A stretch of 64,000 nucleotides of DNA from Escherichia coli. GTDB lineage: Bacteria; Pseudomonadota; Gammaproteobacteria; Enterobacterales; Enterobacteriaceae. Shown here one piece after another: positions 20,517 through 40,072 of this stretch (position 1 is the stretch's first letter; each line of letters opens with the position of its first letter). The DNA lies in assembly GCF_048403405.1 (NCBI RefSeq), contig NZ_CP183129.1. The stretch is one strand, 5' to 3'. A program made the position numbers and the translations under genes. The notes under the pieces were generated by a model. It was not told where the DNA came from, searched no databases, and was given only the letters and a program-made list of their open reading frames with translations.

Positions 20517-20550
20517 ATAAAAGGTCCGATGCCCATCGGACCTTTTTATT
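20517..20550. terminator. Bidirectional rho-independent terminator between ecdD and ygbN
   Basis: GGTCCGATG / CATCGGACC stem flanked by an A-run upstream and TTTTTATT downstream. Confidence 0.65.
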
Positions 20551-27366: not shown

Positions 27367-29928
27367 TTACACCAGACTCTTCAAGCGATAAATCCACTCC
27401 AGCGCCTGACGCGGAGTCAGTGAATCCGGGTCGAGGTTTTCCAGTGCCTCGACCGCAGGCGAAGTTTCTTCTGGTACGGACAGCAAAGACATCTGCGTGC
27501 CATCTACCTGCGTCGCGGCGGCATTCGGCGAAATGCTCTCCAGCTCACGCAGTTTCTGCCGCGCGCGTTTGATCACCTCTTTTGGCACGCCCGCAAGGGC
27601 TGCAACCGCCAGGCCGTAGCTTTTGCTCGCCGCGCCATCCTGCACGCTGTGCATAAAGGCAATGGTGTCGCCGTGCTCCAGTGCATCGAGATGCACGTTG
27701 GCGACGCCTTCCATTTTCTCCGGTAACTGGGTCAGCTCGAAATAGTGGGTGGCAAACAACGTCAACGCTTTAATCTTATTCGCCAGATTTTCCGCGCACG
27801 CCCACGCCAGCGACAGACCATCGTAAGTGGACGTCCCGCGCCCAATCTCATCCATCAGTACCAGACTGTACTCGGTGGCGTTATGTAAAATATTGGCGGT
27901 TTCGGTCATTTCCACCATAAAGGTTGAACGCCCGGATGCCAGATCATCCGCTGCCCCTACGCGGGTAAAGATGCGATCGATAGGTCCAATCTCGACTTTT
28001 TGTGCCGGTACATAGCTGCCGATGTAGGCCATCAGCGCAATCAGTGCGGTCTGGCGCATATAGGTACTTTTACCGCCCATATTCGGACCGGTAATGATCA
28101 ACATGCGACGCTGCGGCGACAGGTTCAGCGGGTTGGCGATAAACGGCTCATTCAGCACCTGTTCAACCACCGGATGGCGGCCTTCGGTGATGCGAATACC
28201 CGGTTTATCAATAAAGGTCGGGCAGGTGTAGTTCAGGGTATAGGCCCGTTCCGCCAGGTTCACCAGCACGTCGAGTTCCGCCAGTGCGCTCGCGCTCTGT
28301 TGCAACGCTTCCAGATGCGGCAACAGCAGGTCGAACAGCTCTTCATAAAGCTGTTTTTCCAGTGCCAGTGCTTTGCCTTTTGAAGTGAGAACTTTGTCTT
28401 CGTACTCTTTTAGCTCTGGAATAATGTAGCGCTCGGCGTTTTTCAGCGTCTGGCGACGCATGTAATTGATGGGTGCCAGATGGCTTTGTCCACGGCTGAT
28501 CTGAATGTAATAACCATGAACCGCGTTAAAGCCGACTTTCAGGGTGTCCAGGCCAGTACGTTCACGCTCGCGGACTTCCAGACGCTCCAGATAATCGGTC
28601 GCGCCGTCAGCCAGCGCGCGCCACTCATCCAGCTCTTCGTTATAGCCCGGTGCGATAACACCACCGTCGCGTACCAGCACCGGCGGTGTGTCGATGATTG
28701 CTCGCTCCAGCAGATCGCGCAGCTCGGCAAACTCGCCCATTTTTTCACGCAGCGCCTGTACCGGAGCGCTATCGACATTTTCTAACTGCGCGCGCAGCTC
28801 CGGCAGTTGCTGGAAAGCGTGACGCATACGGGCCAGATCGCGTGGGCGAGCAGTTCGTAAAGCCAGACGCGCCAGAATACGTTCCAGGTCGCCGACCTGA
28901 CGCAGTACCGGCTGCAGCTCGGCGGTGAAATCCTGCAATGCGCCAATAGTTTGCTGGCGCTCAAGCAAGACGCGGGTATCGCGCACTGGCATATGCAGCC
29001 AGCGTTTCAGCATACGGCTGCCCATCGGCGTGACGGTGCAGTCGAGCACAGAAGCCAGCGTATTTTCCGCACCGCCCGCCAGGTTCTGGGTAATTTCCAG
29101 GTTACGACGCGTCGCGGCATCCATAATGATGCTGTCCTGCTCACGTTCCATGGTGATAGAACGAATATGCGGCAGGGTCGTGCGTTGAGTATCTTTCGCA
29201 TACTGCAACAGACAACCGGCAGCACAAAGTCCGCGCGGCGCGTTCTCGACGCCAAAACCGACCAGATCGCGGGTGCCAAATTGCAGATTCAACTGCTGGC
29301 GCGCGGTGTCGATTTCAAACTCCCACAGCGGGCGACGGCGCAGTCCGCGACGACCTTCAATCAGCGACATCTCGGCGAAATTTTCTGCATACAACAGCTC
29401 TGCCGGATTAGTGCGTTGCAGCTCTGCCGCCATCGTTTCGCGGTCAGCCGGTTCGCTCAGGCGAAAACGACCGGAACTGATATCCAGCGTCGCGTAGCCG
29501 AAACCTTTGCTGTCCTGCCAGATAGCCGCCAGCAGGTTATCCTGACGCTCCTGCAACAGCGCTTCATCGCTGATGGTGCCCGGCGTAACGATACGCACAA
29601 CTTTGCGCTCAACCGGACCTTTGCTGGTCGCCGGATCGCCAATTTGTTCGCAGATGGCAACGGACTCGCCCTGATTCACCAGTTTGGCGAGGTAGTTTTC
29701 CACCGCATGGTAGGGGATCCCCGCCATCGGGATCGGCTCTCCCGCCGAAGCACCGCGTTTGGTCAGTGAAATATCCAGCAGTTGCGACGCGCGTTTTGCG
29801 TCGTCATAAAACAGTTCATAAAAATCACCCATCCGGTAAAACAGCAGGATCTCGGGATGCTGGGCTTTCAGCTTGAGATATTGCTGCATCATGGGCGTAT
29901 GGGCATCGAAATTTTCTATTGCACTCAT
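27367..29928 (-). CDS. mutS: DNA mismatch repair protein MutS
   Basis: 853 aa ORF starting [18 protein letters not shown] with Walker [10 protein letters not shown]. Confidence 0.97.
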
Positions 29929-35623: not shown

Positions 35624-36486
35624 CGCTGTGTCTCCAGCCAGTTCAGCCACTGGTCCATCCCTTCGCCGCTGGTGGCGGAAATAAGGATGATTTCAATTTC
35701 TGGATTGACTTCGCGGGCGCAGGCGATGCACTTCTCAACGTCAAAGTTGAGATACGGCAGCAGGTCAACTTTGTTGAGCAGCATCAGCGAGGCGGCGGCA
35801 AACATATGGGGATATTTCAGCGGTTTGTCTTCACCTTCGGTAACGGAAAGCACCGCCACTTTGTGTTTTTCACCGAGATCGAAGCTCGCCGGGCATACAA
35901 GGTTGCCAACGTTTTCGATAAACAGAATACCGTTATCGTCCAGTGGCAGGCGCGGCGCGGCGTCGGCAATCATCTGTGCGTCAAGATGGCAGCCTTTACC
36001 GGTGTTCACCTGAATCGCTGGTGTGCCGGTAGCGCGAATGCGTGCGGCATCGTTCACGGTTTGCTGGTCGCCTTCAATAACCGCGCACGGAACGCTGTCT
36101 TTCAGGCGCATTAAGGTTTCCGTCAGCAGGGTGGTTTTACCGGAACCAGGGCTGGAAACCAGGTTGAGCACCAGTTGCTTGCGGGCAGCAAAGCGCGCGC
36201 GGTTGCGTTCAGCCAGACGGTTGTTTTTGTCCAGCACGTCAATTTCAACTTCCAGCATCCGGCGCTGGCTCATGCCCGGCGCGTGAGTGCCCGCTTCGCC
36301 ATGACCGTAATGCAGGTCGCCTTCTTCAGTCTGGCTGGGGGTAAATTCAGGCGTTTTAATGCCGGTGATTTTCATCTTCGGGCGTGCCGCCGGGGCAAAT
36401 GGCGCGCTACGAAACGCGGAATGAGGGTTATGTTCATCACCCTCGATATACAGGTTGCCTTCACCGCAACCGCATGTTGTACACAT
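35614..36486 (-). CDS. hypB: Hydrogenase nickel-incorporation GTPase HypB
   Basis: 290 aa ORF with N-terminal CxxCGC metal site, histidine-rich stretch and GTPase motifs. Confidence 0.95.
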
Positions 36487-36489
36487 CGC

Positions 36490-36840
36490 TCACTCCTGGT
36501 CTATTTCTATCCGCCGAATCTGTAAACCGTCGTCTGCCACAATCTGTAGCATGTCACCATGACACTGTGGACAGCGGCGGACGCGCTGGGTCAGTAGCGT
36601 CACATACTGTTGGCATGTTTCACACCAGCATTCGGCCTCTTGTTCTTCGAGGTGCAGTTTACAACCTTCCGCCACGCTGCCGCGGCAAACCAGATCAAAA
36701 CAAAAGGCAAGAGAGCTGGTTTCGACACAAGAAAATGCGCCAATTTTGAGCCAGACCCCAGTTACGCGTTTTGCGCCGTGTTTTGCGGCCTGCTGTTCGA
36801 TCAATTCCAGTGCCCGTTGGCAGAGGGTTATTTCGTGCAT
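36490..36840 (-). CDS. hypA: Hydrogenase nickel-incorporation protein HypA
   Basis: Track ORF trimmed to ATG at 36840 (MHEITLCQRALE), which has GGAGG upstream; 116 aa. Confidence 0.9.
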   Translation of the reverse strand: MHEITLCQRALELIEQQAAKHGAKRVTGVWLKIGAFSCVETSSLAFCFDLVCRGSVAEGCKLHLEEQEAECWCETCQQYVTLLTQRVRRCPQCHGDMLQIVADDGLQIRRIEIDQE

Positions 36841-36870
36841 ATCGCCTCCCATTAACTATTGCCAGCTACA

Positions 36871-36886
36871 AGCAATAATTGTGCCA
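36871..36886 (-). promoter_or_regulatory. Sigma-54 promoter (-24/-12) for the hyp operon
   Basis: Minus strand reads TGGCACAATTATTGCT, a perfect TGGCAC-N5-TTGC match, about 30 bp upstream of hypA. Confidence 0.55.
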
Positions 36887-36999
36887 GTGTTGATTATCCC
36901 TGCAGTGAATAATGTCGATGATGTCGAAATGACACGTCGACACGGCGACGAAATTCATCTTTAGCTTAAAAATCGCTTTAATAACAATGAATTAAAAGT

Positions 37000-37015
37000 T
37001 GGCACAGAAAATGCT
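37000..37015 (+). promoter_or_regulatory. Sigma-54 promoter (-24/-12) for the hyc operon
   Basis: TGGCACAGAAAATGCT, near-consensus TGGCAC-N5-TTGC, 37 bp upstream of hycA ATG. Confidence 0.5.
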
Positions 37016-37051
37016 TAAAGCTGGCATCTCTGTTAAACGGGTAACCTGACA

Positions 37052-37513
37052 ATGACTATTTGGGAAATAAGCGAGAAAGCCGATTACATCGCACAGCGGC
37101 ATCGTCGCCTACAGGACCAGTGGCACATCTACTGCAATTCGCTGGTTCAGGGGATCACGTTATCGAAAGCGCGCCTGCATCACGCCATGAGCTGCGCGCC
37201 GGACAAAGAACTCTGTTTCGTCCTTTTTGAACATTTTCGTATTTACGTCACCCTGGCGGATGGCTTTAACAGCCACACCATCGAGTATTACGTCGAAACA
37301 AAAGATGGTGAAGACAAACAGCGGATTGCGCAGGCGCAACTGAGCATTGACGGCATGATTGATGGCAAGGTCAACATCCGCGATCGCGAACAGGTTCTGG
37401 AACACTATCTCGAAAAAATCGCTGGCGTTTACGACAGCTTATACACCGCCATTGAAAACAATGTGCCGGTGAATTTAAGCCAACTGGTAAAGGGACAAAG
37501 CCCGGCAGCATGA
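37052..37513 (+). CDS. hycA: Formate hydrogenlyase regulatory protein HycA
   Basis: 153 aa ORF, first gene of the hyc operon. Confidence 0.9.
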   Translation: MTIWEISEKADYIAQRHRRLQDQWHIYCNSLVQGITLSKARLHHAMSCAPDKELCFVLFEHFRIYVTLADGFNSHTIEYYVETKDGEDKQRIAQAQLSIDGMIDGKVNIRDREQVLEHYLEKIAGVYDSLYTAIENNVPVNLSQLVKGQSPAA

Positions 37514-37637
37514 GCTGAGGCTTTGCCCGTTTTGCAGGCGTTACGCCTGTTTGGGGATGGGCGTGTCGATGAGTGTCGAAAATGACATTTCATCGGCATG
37601 TTTTCGTCAAAAATGACAATCACCTGAGGAATGCCTG

Positions 37638-38249
37638 GTGAATCGTTTTGTAATTGCTGACTCCACGCTCTGTATCGGCTGCCACACCTGTGAGGCCGCC
37701 TGTTCAGAGACGCATCGCCAGCACGGCCTGCAATCAATGCCGCGCCTGCGAGTGATGCTCAATGAAAAAGAATCTGCGCCGCAGCTCTGTCACCACTGTG
37801 AAGATGCGCCCTGTGCGGTGGTTTGCCCGGTTAACGCCATCACCCGCGTTGATGGGGCCGTGCAGTTGAATGAAAGTCTGTGCGTAAGCTGCAAACTGTG
37901 CGGCATCGCCTGCCCATTTGGCGCAATTGAATTTTCCGGCAGCCGTCCGCTGGATATTCCGGCAAACGCCAATACCCCGAAAGCGCCACCGGCACCGCCT
38001 GCTCCGGCGCGTGTCAGCACATTGCTTGACTGGGTGCCAGGTATTCGCGCGATCGCCGTCAAATGTGACCTTTGCAGTTTTGATGAACAAGGTCCGGCCT
38101 GCGTGCGGATGTGCCCGACTAAAGCCCTGCATCTGGTGGATAACACCGATATCGCCCGCGTTAGCAAACGTAAGCGTGAGCTGACCTTTAACACGGACTT
38201 TGGCGATCTCACCTTGTTTCAGCAGGCTCAAAGTGGAGAGGCTAAATGA
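37638..38249 (+). CDS. hycB: Formate hydrogenlyase subunit 2 (4Fe-4S ferredoxin-like)
   Basis: 203 aa ORF with multiple CxxCxxCxxxCP motifs; GTG start with GAGGA RBS. Confidence 0.95.
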   Translation: MNRFVIADSTLCIGCHTCEAACSETHRQHGLQSMPRLRVMLNEKESAPQLCHHCEDAPCAVVCPVNAITRVDGAVQLNESLCVSCKLCGIACPFGAIEFSGSRPLDIPANANTPKAPPAPPAPARVSTLLDWVPGIRAIAVKCDLCSFDEQGPACVRMCPTKALHLVDNTDIARVSKRKRELTFNTDFGDLTLFQQAQSGEAK

Positions 38250-40072
38250 GCGCAATTTCCCTGATCAATAGCGGCGTGGCGTGGTTTGTCGCCGCCGCTG
38301 TTCTGGCATTTCTCTTTTCTTTTCAAAAGGCGCTAAGCGGCTGGATAGCCGGAATTGGCGGCGCGGTGGGTAGTCTGTATACGGCAGCCGCGGGCTTCAC
38401 TGTACTGACTGGCGCGGTTGGCGTGAGCGGTGCGCTGTCGCTGGTAAGCTACGATGTGCAAATCTCTCCGCTTAACGCGATTTGGCTGATTACGCTCGGT
38501 CTGTGCGGTCTGTTTGTCAGCCTCTATAACATTGACTGGCATCGCCACGCGCAGGTGAAGTGCAACGGCTTGCAGATCAATATGTTGATGGCTGCCGCCG
38601 TCTGCGCCGTCATTGCCAGCAACCTCGGCATGTTCGTGGTAATGGCCGAAATCATGGCCCTGTGCGCGGTGTTCCTTACCAGCAACAGCAAAGAGGGCAA
38701 AGTGTGGTTTGCGCTGGGGCGTCTTGGCACTCTGCTGCTGGCGATTGCCTGTTGGCTGCTGTGGCAGCGTTACGGCACGCTGGATCTGCGCCTGCTGGAT
38801 ATGCGTATGCAACAGCTGCCGCTCGGTTCCGATATCTGGCTGCTCGGTGTGATTGGTTTTGGCCTGCTGGCCGGGATTATTCCGCTGCACGGCTGGGTGC
38901 CGCAGGCACATGCTAACGCCTCTGCGCCAGCTGCCGCGTTGTTTTCTACGGTAGTCATGAAAATTGGCCTGCTGGGCATTTTAACCCTGTCGCTGCTGGG
39001 CGGTAATGCACCGCTGTGGTGGGGGATCGCGCTGCTGGTGCTCGGCATGATCACCGCGTTCGTCGGCGGTCTGTATGCGCTGATGGAGCACAACATCCAG
39101 CGCCTGCTGGCTTACCACACCCTGGAGAATATCGGCATCATTCTGCTGGGGCTGGGCGCTGGCGTAACGGGTATCGCGCTCGAACAACCGGCGCTGATTG
39201 CCCTTGGTCTGGTCGGTGGTCTGTACCATCTGCTTAACCATAGCCTGTTCAAAAGCGTACTGTTCCTCGGGGCGGGGAGCGTCTGGTTCCGTACCGGGCA
39301 TCGCGATATCGAAAAACTTGGCGGTATTGGCAAGAAAATGCCGGTTATCTCCATCGCCATGTTAGTCGGGCTGATGGCAATGGCTGCGCTGCCGCCGCTG
39401 AACGGGTTTGCCGGGGAATGGGTTATCTATCAATCCTTCTTCAAACTGAGCAATAGTGGCGCGTTTGTTGCCCGTCTGCTGGGGCCGCTGCTCGCTGTGG
39501 GGCTGGCAATTACCGGTGCGCTGGCGGTGATGTGTATGGCGAAAGTCTATGGCGTCACGTTCCTCGGCGCGCCGCGTACCAAAGAAGCCGAAAACGCCAC
39601 CTGTGCGCCGCTCCTGATGAGCGTAAGCGTGGTGGCACTGGCGATTTGCTGCGTCATTGGCGGTGTTGCTGCGCCGTGGCTGCTGCCGATGCTCTCTGCT
39701 GCTGTACCTCTGCCGCTGGAGCCTGCTAACACCACCGTTTCTCAACCCATGATCACGTTGCTGCTGATTGCCTGCCCGCTGCTGCCATTCATCATTATGG
39801 CGATTTGCAAAGGCGATCGTTTGCCGTCGCGTTCCCGCGGCGCGGCCTGGGTGTGCGGCTACGACCATGAAAAATCAATGGTGATTACTGCTCACGGTTT
39901 TGCCATGCCGGTGAAACAGGCGTTTGCGCCGGTGCTGAAACTGCGCAAATGGCTGAATCCGGTGTCGCTGGTACCGGGCTGGCAGTGTGAGGGGAGTGCG
40001 TTGCTGTTCCGCCGGATGGCGCTGGTTGAACTGGCGGTACTGGTGGTGATTATTGTTTCACGAGGAGCCTGA
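38246..40072 (+). CDS. hycC: Formate hydrogenlyase membrane subunit 3
   Basis: 608 aa polytopic membrane ORF (antiporter-like). Confidence 0.95.
   Translation: MSAISLINSGVAWFVAAAVLAFLFSFQKALSGWIAGIGGAVGSLYTAAAGFTVLTGAVGVSGALSLVSYDVQISPLNAIWLITLGLCGLFVSLYNIDWHRHAQVKCNGLQINMLMAAAVCAVIASNLGMFVVMAEIMALCAVFLTSNSKEGKVWFALGRLGTLLLAIACWLLWQRYGTLDLRLLDMRMQQLPLGSDIWLLGVIGFGLLAGIIPLHGWVPQAHANASAPAAALFSTVVMKIGLLGILTLSLLGGNAPLWWGIALLVLGMITAFVGGLYALMEHNIQRLLAYHTLENIGIILLGLGAGVTGIALEQPALIALGLVGGLYHLLNHSLFKSVLFLGAGSVWFRTGHRDIEKLGGIGKKMPVISIAMLVGLMAMAALPPLNGFAGEWVIYQSFFKLSNSGAFVARLLGPLLAVGLAITGALAVMCMAKVYGVTFLGAPRTKEAENATCAPLLMSVSVVALAICCVIGGVAAPWLLPMLSAAVPLPLEPANTTVSQPMITLLLIACPLLPFIIMAICKGDRLPSRSRGAAWVCGYDHEKSMVITAHGFAMPVKQAFAPVLKLRKWLNPVSLVPGWQCEGSALLFRRMALVELAVLVVIIVSRGA

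Follow-up and report, generated by a model that had tools for sequence, protein, structure and literature searches.

A stable composite stem-loop was found on the mRNA strand of Escherichia coli between the hycA stop codon and an FhlA-type enhancer that takes up most of the hycA-hycB gap, at positions 37525-37562 of the window (the whole 64,000-nucleotide stretch of DNA that was analysed). The structure is restricted to one clade of the Enterobacteriaceae, is maintained on the hyc mRNA strand according to comparisons that give this moderate support, and has poor terminator features in all species tested. The reading favoured here, which is held tentatively, is that of an intercistronic mRNA stem-loop that would mark or protect the 3' end of a hycA-only RNA with little true termination.

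Composition of the hycA-hycB gap

The gap between hycA and hycB comprises positions 37514-37637, exactly 124 bp. In the RefSeq annotation of an identical E. coli locus, the boundaries of both genes are the same and the gap carries no annotated feature. Moreover, the GTG start of hycB is used in all of the 80 orthologous loci that were compared. The features of the region are as follows.

36490-36852, minus strand: hypA, in the E. coli hyp/hyc region
36871-36886, minus strand: sigma-54 promoter of hypA, TGGCACAATTATTGCT, from a motif search; presumed target of the enhancer in the gap
36913-36959, no strand assigned: FhlA-type enhancer of the hypA-hycA divergent region, TGTCGATGATGTCGAAATGACACGTCGACACGGCGACGAAATTCATC, recognised by the shared TGTCGATGA and GTCGAAATGACA motifs
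37000-37015, plus strand: sigma-54 promoter of hycA, TGGCACAGAAAATGCT, from a motif search; the only known promoter for hycA-I
37052-37513, plus strand: hycA coding sequence, 153 amino acids, FhlA anti-activator, from the open reading frame list and homologues named HycA with PF11046; stop codon TGA at 37511-37513
37525-37562, plus strand: composite 38-nt stem-loop, outer helix GCCCGUUUU/GGGAUGGGC around an apical hairpin, from folding and conservation
37535-37549, plus strand: apical hairpin, 6-bp stem CAGGCG/CGCCTG and loop TTA, from sequence and folding
37550-37556, plus strand: TTTGGGG tail, a run of three U's followed by a G-run, from sequence and folding
37563-37620, no strand assigned: FhlA-type enhancer (UAS) block, from repeats, shared motifs, consensus half-sites and conservation
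37620-37641, plus strand: hairpin pairing the hycB Shine-Dalgarno sequence (GAGG, 37626-37629) with the GTG start (37638), TCACCUGAGGAAUGCCUGGUGA, from whole-gap folds
37638-38249, plus strand: hycB coding sequence, 203 amino acids, GTG start at 37638, from the open reading frame list, orthologues and RefSeq annotation
from 38246: hycC

To our knowledge, the genes hycB-I have no promoter of their own, and a sequence scan of the hycA-hycB gap found no match to a sigma-70-type promoter, so that read-through past the hairpin must dominate. Near-identical sigma-54 sites for hycA and hypA are given in the ChIP-seq table of PMC4591121. The two divergent promoters (36860-36886 and 37000-37026) are the arms of a 27-nt inverted repeat with 78% complementarity, separated by 113 nt. 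A further sigma-54-like -24/-12 motif, TGGCACATCTACTGCA, lies within hycA at 37121-37136 on the plus strand; it points the same way as the real hycA promoter and follows it by about 120 bp. It was rejected as a second promoter, which would have let the operon tolerate a terminator, and is probably a by-product of coding, because across the 80 loci it tracks the conserved codons for W-H-x-Y-C and is lost where His is replaced by Arg or Gln; the site is not among the entries examined in the PMC4591121 site table.

A sequence-only reading had described a hairpin behind hycA, and its letters and coordinates hold. CAGGCG occupies 37535-37540, TTA 37541-37543 and CGCCTG 37544-37549, followed by TTTGGGG at 37550-37556, and the hairpin begins at the 22nd base past the hycA stop, within the 124-bp gap. 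A G37534.U37550 pair can lengthen it. Taken as an isolated element, this apical hairpin is only partly beyond chance: it folds at -9.2 kcal/mol (z = -1.9), and 11 of 200 shuffled sequences were equally stable. In the same way, perfect GC-rich 6-bp hairpins with loops of 3-8 nt number 173 in the window versus 106 +/- 13 in shuffles, where they occur at a rate of about 0.10 per 124-nt stretch.

The hairpin is the mere tip of a larger stem-loop that the sequence-only reading had overlooked. With its outer helix, the composite structure at 37525-37562 is clearly non-random, as it folds on the plus strand at -20.1 kcal/mol (z = -3.4, with 1 of 200 shuffles as stable), versus -13.2 kcal/mol on the minus strand. 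Within this structure the first U and the distal G's of the TTTGGGG tail are base-paired.

The 3' part of the gap has a different character. The block at 37563-37620, about 60% of the gap, was likewise overlooked and is, judged by its motifs, an FhlA-type enhancer. It contains TGTCGATGA (37564-72) and the direct repeats GTCGAAAATGACA (37575-87) and GTCAAAAATGACA (37606-18), 31 bp apart, together with the half-sites CGAAAATG, CATTTCATCG, GTTTTCG and CAAAAATG; as RNA, the inverted repeat of the block forms a second hairpin at 37563-37599. For FhlA enhancers, PMC4987338 gives the consensus CATTTCGTACGAAATG, citing Leonhartsberger et al. (2000), and GTTTTCGTCAAAAATG agrees with it at 11 of 16 positions. 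The 3' 60% of the gap resembles the upstream activating sequences for FhlA in the formate regulon (fdhF, hyc, hyp and hydN-hypF): it carries half-sites of CATTTCGTACGAAATG, and both TGTCGATGA and GTCGAAA(A)TGACA are common to the block, the hyc/hyp divergent region and the region upstream of hydN. The 9-mer TGTCGATGA has 6 matches in the window versus 0.52 expected, of which those at 37564 (gap), 36913 (hypA-hycA divergent region) and 50077 (upstream of the hydN sigma-54 promoter at 50143-58) fall in these three FhlA-controlled regions. Other exact copies are located outside them at 28689 (plus strand), 44288 (minus) and 62851 (minus).

The block is also conserved across species, in nearly all of the 80 loci, with a divergence of 0.088 versus 0.29 at synonymous sites. 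The strongly selected part of the gap is therefore the enhancer, which explains the presence of a gap in all genera. Binding of FhlA between hycA and hycB, at a site serving the hyp operon, was reportedly described by Schlensog et al. in 1994, and Leonhartsberger et al. in 2000 are said to have treated the same site. A full-text literature search, to which the key papers of the 1990s were out of reach, found nothing specific on an FhlA site or a terminator between the two genes. In strain MR40, hycA was replaced by fdhF fused to hycB, after which the native hyc promoter that remained gave low expression and less H2 was produced (bioRxiv 10.1101/2021.01.06.425572). This replacement presumably removes the hycA-hycB spacer, and its phenotype would be consistent with a spacer or an enhancer that matters, a point that the paper does not address.

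Folding of the whole gap brings these parts together. The 124 nt fold at -49.3 kcal/mol (z -4.3), none of 200 shuffles being as stable, into two adjoining structures, i.e. the stem-loop at 37525-37562 and the inverted repeat at 37563-37599, which occupy most of the gap along with the Shine-Dalgarno/start hairpin. The latter may limit hycB translation. The mean predicted probability that the Shine-Dalgarno sequence is paired is 0.59 for the short-gap genera and 0.77 for the clade with long gaps. The sequence of its helix differs among genera, for example CACCUG...CCUGGUG versus CACCCG...CCCGGUG.

Such extensive folding could mean that the segment is a structural filler, in which a folded untranslated spacer with little single-stranded RNA would keep Rho from loading and so avoid polarity, or would modulate the translation of hycB. 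We regard this as quite improbable. The stability of the whole gap, the coverage of most of it by hairpins and the occurrence of the extra segment only where the gap is long are in its favour, but a large share of the fold signal is due to palindromes that FhlA binding requires in the DNA, and a helix closing the 5' end of the gap onto the Shine-Dalgarno sequence is strong only in the Citrobacter freundii group and absent from E. coli and Salmonella. For this last reason, a long-range helix coupling hycB translation to hycA termination was rejected. In the C. freundii group (seven loci: L007, L008, L011, L014-L016 and L019), the sequence GCCUCGGG right after the hycA stop, within the first 10 nt, is predicted to pair with the hycB Shine-Dalgarno sequence some 130 nt away, with P 0.91 in L007. 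This helix is a possible lineage-specific device of translational coupling, not common to E. coli and Salmonella. Finally, a small open reading frame starting at ATG 37557 was discarded, its frame being broken by a GAAAATG/GAAATG indel in Citrobacter and its ATG missing in C. amalonaticus.

Distribution and apparent maintenance of the stem-loop

The 80 orthologous loci were retrieved with a HycA profile from species-representative genomes, and hycB lies downstream in all of them. By gap length, the loci group into classes: 124 bp in Escherichia; 128-146 bp in Salmonella, Citrobacter and Intestinirhabdus; 94-97 bp in Kosakonia; 67-83 bp in Enterobacter, Klebsiella, Kluyvera, Lelliottia, Raoultella, Pseudocitrobacter and others; and 52 bp in Klebsiella indica. 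While the enhancer block and the hycB Shine-Dalgarno sequence are conserved in essentially all loci, the hairpin-bearing 5' segment is confined to the two long-gap classes. The stem-loop is thus present in Escherichia, Salmonella, Citrobacter and Intestinirhabdus only, and in the 55 loci without it hycA is directly followed by the conserved TGTCGA/CGAAAATG/TTTCGTCAAAAATGAC block. The stem-loop must be dispensable for the function of the hyc operon, since most Enterobacteriaceae lack it, a point against the favoured reading.

Two groups of loci depart from this layout in their own way. In Kosakonia and a soil metagenome-assembled genome (L072, L075 and L077-L080), which have no hycA-proximal stem-loop, a GC-rich insert of about 15-25 nt, such as CGCCCGTAACCAGGGTG or GCCCGTAAGCGGGCG, is located between the enhancer and the Shine-Dalgarno sequence; it is a second, independent insertion of a putative hairpin in the same spacer. 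In Klebsiella indica (L068), the TGTCGA...TGTCGAAAATGACA half of the enhancer is missing from the 52-nt gap, only TTTCGTCAAAAATGAC being left, and the hycA frame extends 12-30 nt further than elsewhere.

A search with a covariance model of 16 long forms gave exactly one copy in each of 26 clade sequences (41 bits and E about 1e-10 for E. coli) and no match in the other 55 loci or elsewhere in the window. A survey of 5,426 E. coli genomes gave a single copy of the 47-nt E. coli segment in 5,425 of them, and 5,370 of the 5,426 records matched it at 99% identity or more. A REP/BIME, a MITE or another dispersed palindrome was rejected on these grounds, and the copy counts make the stem-loop a clade-specific single-copy element. 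It does not belong to a known RNA family either, as Rfam 15 run over 36400-38400 gave three chance-level matches, none of them across the hairpin.

Its place directly against the enhancer (37562/37563) raises the question of a role as DNA, as a palindromic protein site or a cruciform that helps another regulator or the FhlA enhancer next to it. In Citrobacter and Salmonella, the arm motif TCGTGA/TCACGA and a TTTnGGGA stretch are indeed fairly conserved. Yet the E. coli arms differ (CAGGCG/CGCCTG), the spacing between arms ranges from 3 to about 17 nt, and the imperfections are mostly G.U pairs, which are real mismatches in DNA. Furthermore, the arms lack the FhlA half-site (TTTCG/CGAAA) and most genera with the same enhancer have no palindrome; the likeness to an FhlA upstream activating sequence applies to 37563-37620 and not to the hairpin. 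A DNA-level element is accordingly the reading to which we give the least credit, as highly improbable.

At the RNA level, each of the 25 distinct clade sequences, from four genera and three size classes, folds into a stem-loop that keeps its relative position. The plus-strand fold is more stable than the minus-strand one in 24 of these 25 sequences, with fold z-scores of -2.3 to -4.9 for the clade representatives. With all 25 sequences aligned by MAFFT, the deletion in Escherichia puts the arms out of register, so that RNAalifold found no structure; the analysis was therefore based on the 16 long forms and on the covariance-model alignment. In the long forms, 86.4% of the cells are paired, compared with 18-50% once the partners are shifted. 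Both sides have changed in seven pairs, a number matched by 13 of 500 shuffles, and the covariation score is above that of all 500. A compensatory series, U-A to C.A to C-G, is clearly visible in the alignment (one case).

Relatedness inflates such pairing and covariation numbers, and for this reason neutral decay was simulated at the third-codon rate, starting from an ancestor with all pairs intact and following a tree built on the third positions of hycA and hycB. At this rate (1x), the paired fraction exceeds the 76.5 +/- 4.4% expected (P about 0.009) and the double-change pairs exceed the 2.5 simulated (P about 0.006). G.U cells outnumber A.C cells (43 vs 21), the two being equal in the simulation (P about 0.04), an excess that favours the mRNA strand. 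At 0.7x the rate, the double-change count is still significant, as 0 of 1000 simulations reach it, whereas the paired fraction is not (P = 0.15). A stable intercistronic stem-loop maintained on the mRNA strand is what these comparisons point to, with wobble pairs favouring the plus strand. The support is only moderate, because significance depends on the assumed neutral rate.

The same numbers have to be set against the possibility of a neutral relic, in which a palindrome of 45-65 bp would have entered or arisen in the spacer, on the hycA side of the enhancer, in the common ancestor of Escherichia, Salmonella and Citrobacter, and would since have decayed slowly, with hairpin-centred deletions and no function. 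We consider this reading, the main rival of the favoured one, possible, if rather on the unlikely side. It accords with the fact that 55 of 80 loci lack the stem-loop and have hyc operons that are intact in other respects. It also accords with stems that diverge at roughly the synonymous rate (0.26 vs 0.29), with A.C mismatches that persist across whole subclades and with the non-significant paired fraction at 0.7x, three observations that equally count against the favoured reading. Within Escherichia, the hairpin segment varies at 9 of 49 positions (18%) versus 2 of 75 (2.7%) for the enhancer and Shine-Dalgarno block; 48 of 153 hycA third positions vary.

The shortening of the stem also speaks for a relic and against the favoured reading. 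The E. coli hairpin is a shortened derivative of an ancestral stem of 13-14 bp, now reduced to 6 bp. Symmetric deletions of palindromes keep hairpins without selection, and the short Escherichia and Intestinirhabdus forms need none, since internal deletions in a palindrome preserve the hairpin automatically. Moreover, no compensatory inference can be drawn from the comparison of E. coli with the ancestral form, because MAFFT and the covariance model disagree on the part that was lost. A relic would on the other hand account poorly for double-sided changes in excess of the neutral simulation at both rates, for the G.U excess, for the compensatory series, for a loop that diverges about twice as fast as the stems (0.57) and for the near-identity of the 47-nt segment among E. 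coli records. Within Escherichia, three of the four stem substitutions are C-to-T changes opposite G, by which a wobble pair is kept.

Terminator features of the hairpin

The sequence-only reading had further proposed that the hairpin partially terminates or attenuates transcription and thereby uncouples hycA from the structural genes. A GC-rich stem-loop is present in the transcribed RNA close behind the stop codon (6-bp stem with 5 G-C pairs), and the combination of a 6-bp hairpin with TTT directly after the stem, as in E. coli, is rare, with 6 cases in the 64-kb window versus 2.0 +/- 1.5 in shuffles, or 0.002 per gap. Across the clade, a coding-strand U-run follows the hairpin in 23 of the 25 distinct sequences, with 2-5 U's and then G's; TTT plus GGG is preserved in nearly all members, and no U-run follows the hairpin on the minus strand.

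A U-rich tract is nevertheless lacking. The tail TTTGGGGA holds 3 U in 8, and a consensus terminator scan, which applies a rule of at least 5 T in 8, did not call the apical hairpin; in the region it called 12 terminator-like sites versus 14.7 expected, which is no excess. A terminator index computed with a formula of the d'Aubenton-Carafa type was -28 for the E. coli hairpin and ranged from -15 to -72 across all species tested, versus +19 (20523) and +12 (26274) for two terminator-like control sites of the window. The first of these controls, at 20523-20542, is a perfect 8-bp GC-rich hairpin on both strands, GGTCCGAT(N4)ATCGGACC, with T-runs flanking it on either strand, and looks by its sequence like a bidirectional intrinsic terminator (the index of +19 being that of the plus strand).

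A canonical intrinsic terminator was rejected on these results. A leaky one, in which hairpin and U-run would free a meaningful fraction of the polymerases after hycA, is unlikely in our view, as the three U's of E. coli give way to GGGG, the U-run of the long forms begins 2-3 nt past the stable stem and hycB-I rely on read-through from the hycA promoter. Leaky internal terminators are known within operons, for instance the partial terminator between rplL and rpoB. The hyc hairpin resembles that type in having U's behind it and in lying within an operon whose downstream genes need read-through, and differs from it in a U-tract of 2-5 nt that runs into G's, in the failed scan and in an index that is negative in every species tested. 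What survives of the original proposal is that some role at the hycA/hycB boundary is plausible, given a coding-strand hairpin with its conserved U-run and the signs of maintenance on the mRNA strand; what does not survive is a recognisable intrinsic terminator in any species.

Entries for hycA and hycB are absent from the two E. coli 3'-end mapping data sets that were searched, which come from aerobic cultures, where hyc is, as generally known, hardly expressed. The literature search found no report of a terminator, a small RNA, a CsrA site or an Hfq site at the position of the hairpin and, with the conserved GGGA in mind, no link of hycA or hycB with CsrA, Hfq, CLIP-seq or RIL-seq.

Proposed fate of the hyc messenger and related systems

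In the favoured reading of an intercistronic mRNA stem-loop at the end of hycA, the structure at 37525-37562 would form in the polycistronic hyc mRNA between the hycA stop and the FhlA enhancer and would define or protect the 3' end of a hycA-only RNA, while most polymerases would read on into hycB-I. Such an end would mainly result from an endonucleolytic cut in the neighbouring U-rich stretch, after which the stem-loop would stop exonucleases that degrade the RNA in the 3'-to-5' direction; pausing or termination at the hairpin would be weak and at most a secondary route. We infer both the formation of a 3' end at the stem-loop and the exonuclease barrier from the structure and its position. 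In this way hycA would be modestly uncoupled from the structural genes, by the fate of the RNA and not by efficient termination, and the predicted 3' ends would be those expected from the sequence-only proposal, reached by another route. One consideration tells against this reading beyond those already given, namely that there is no obvious reason why extra hycA message should benefit the cell.

Intercistronic stem-loops that block 3' exonucleases or mark processing sites in polycistronic operons are known, the REP hairpins of the malE-malF interval being one example. Like them, the hyc stem-loop is stable, lies on the mRNA strand just past an upstream stop codon and requires no long U-tract, and the predicted effect is alike, i.e. 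a differential abundance of the upstream and downstream segments. Unlike the malE-malF REP, it is single-copy, is not a REP/BIME and occurs in one clade only, and it is known here from sequence and predicted folds. The stem-loop is thus a clade-restricted new example of the familiar intercistronic mRNA stem-loop, beside a long-known enhancer.

A more far-reaching version can be imagined, in which the ancestor of Escherichia, Salmonella and Citrobacter gained a selected RNA stem-loop upstream of a transcribed enhancer and in which a separate, longer-lived hycA-only transcript tunes the negative feedback of HycA on FhlA. The spacer would then serve twice, as DNA in the hyp enhancer and as RNA in setting the stoichiometry of hycA and hycB. 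We consider this version unlikely.

The composition of the spacer has a bearing on strain engineering, as hycA deletions and hycB fusions remove or move it. Since most of the gap is an FhlA-type enhancer, any manipulation of the hairpin must spare 37563-37620, otherwise hyp expression would be confounded. If a hycA-only RNA is indeed produced, the stem-loop would add a post-transcriptional layer to the formate/FhlA/HycA feedback that controls hydrogen production in E. coli.
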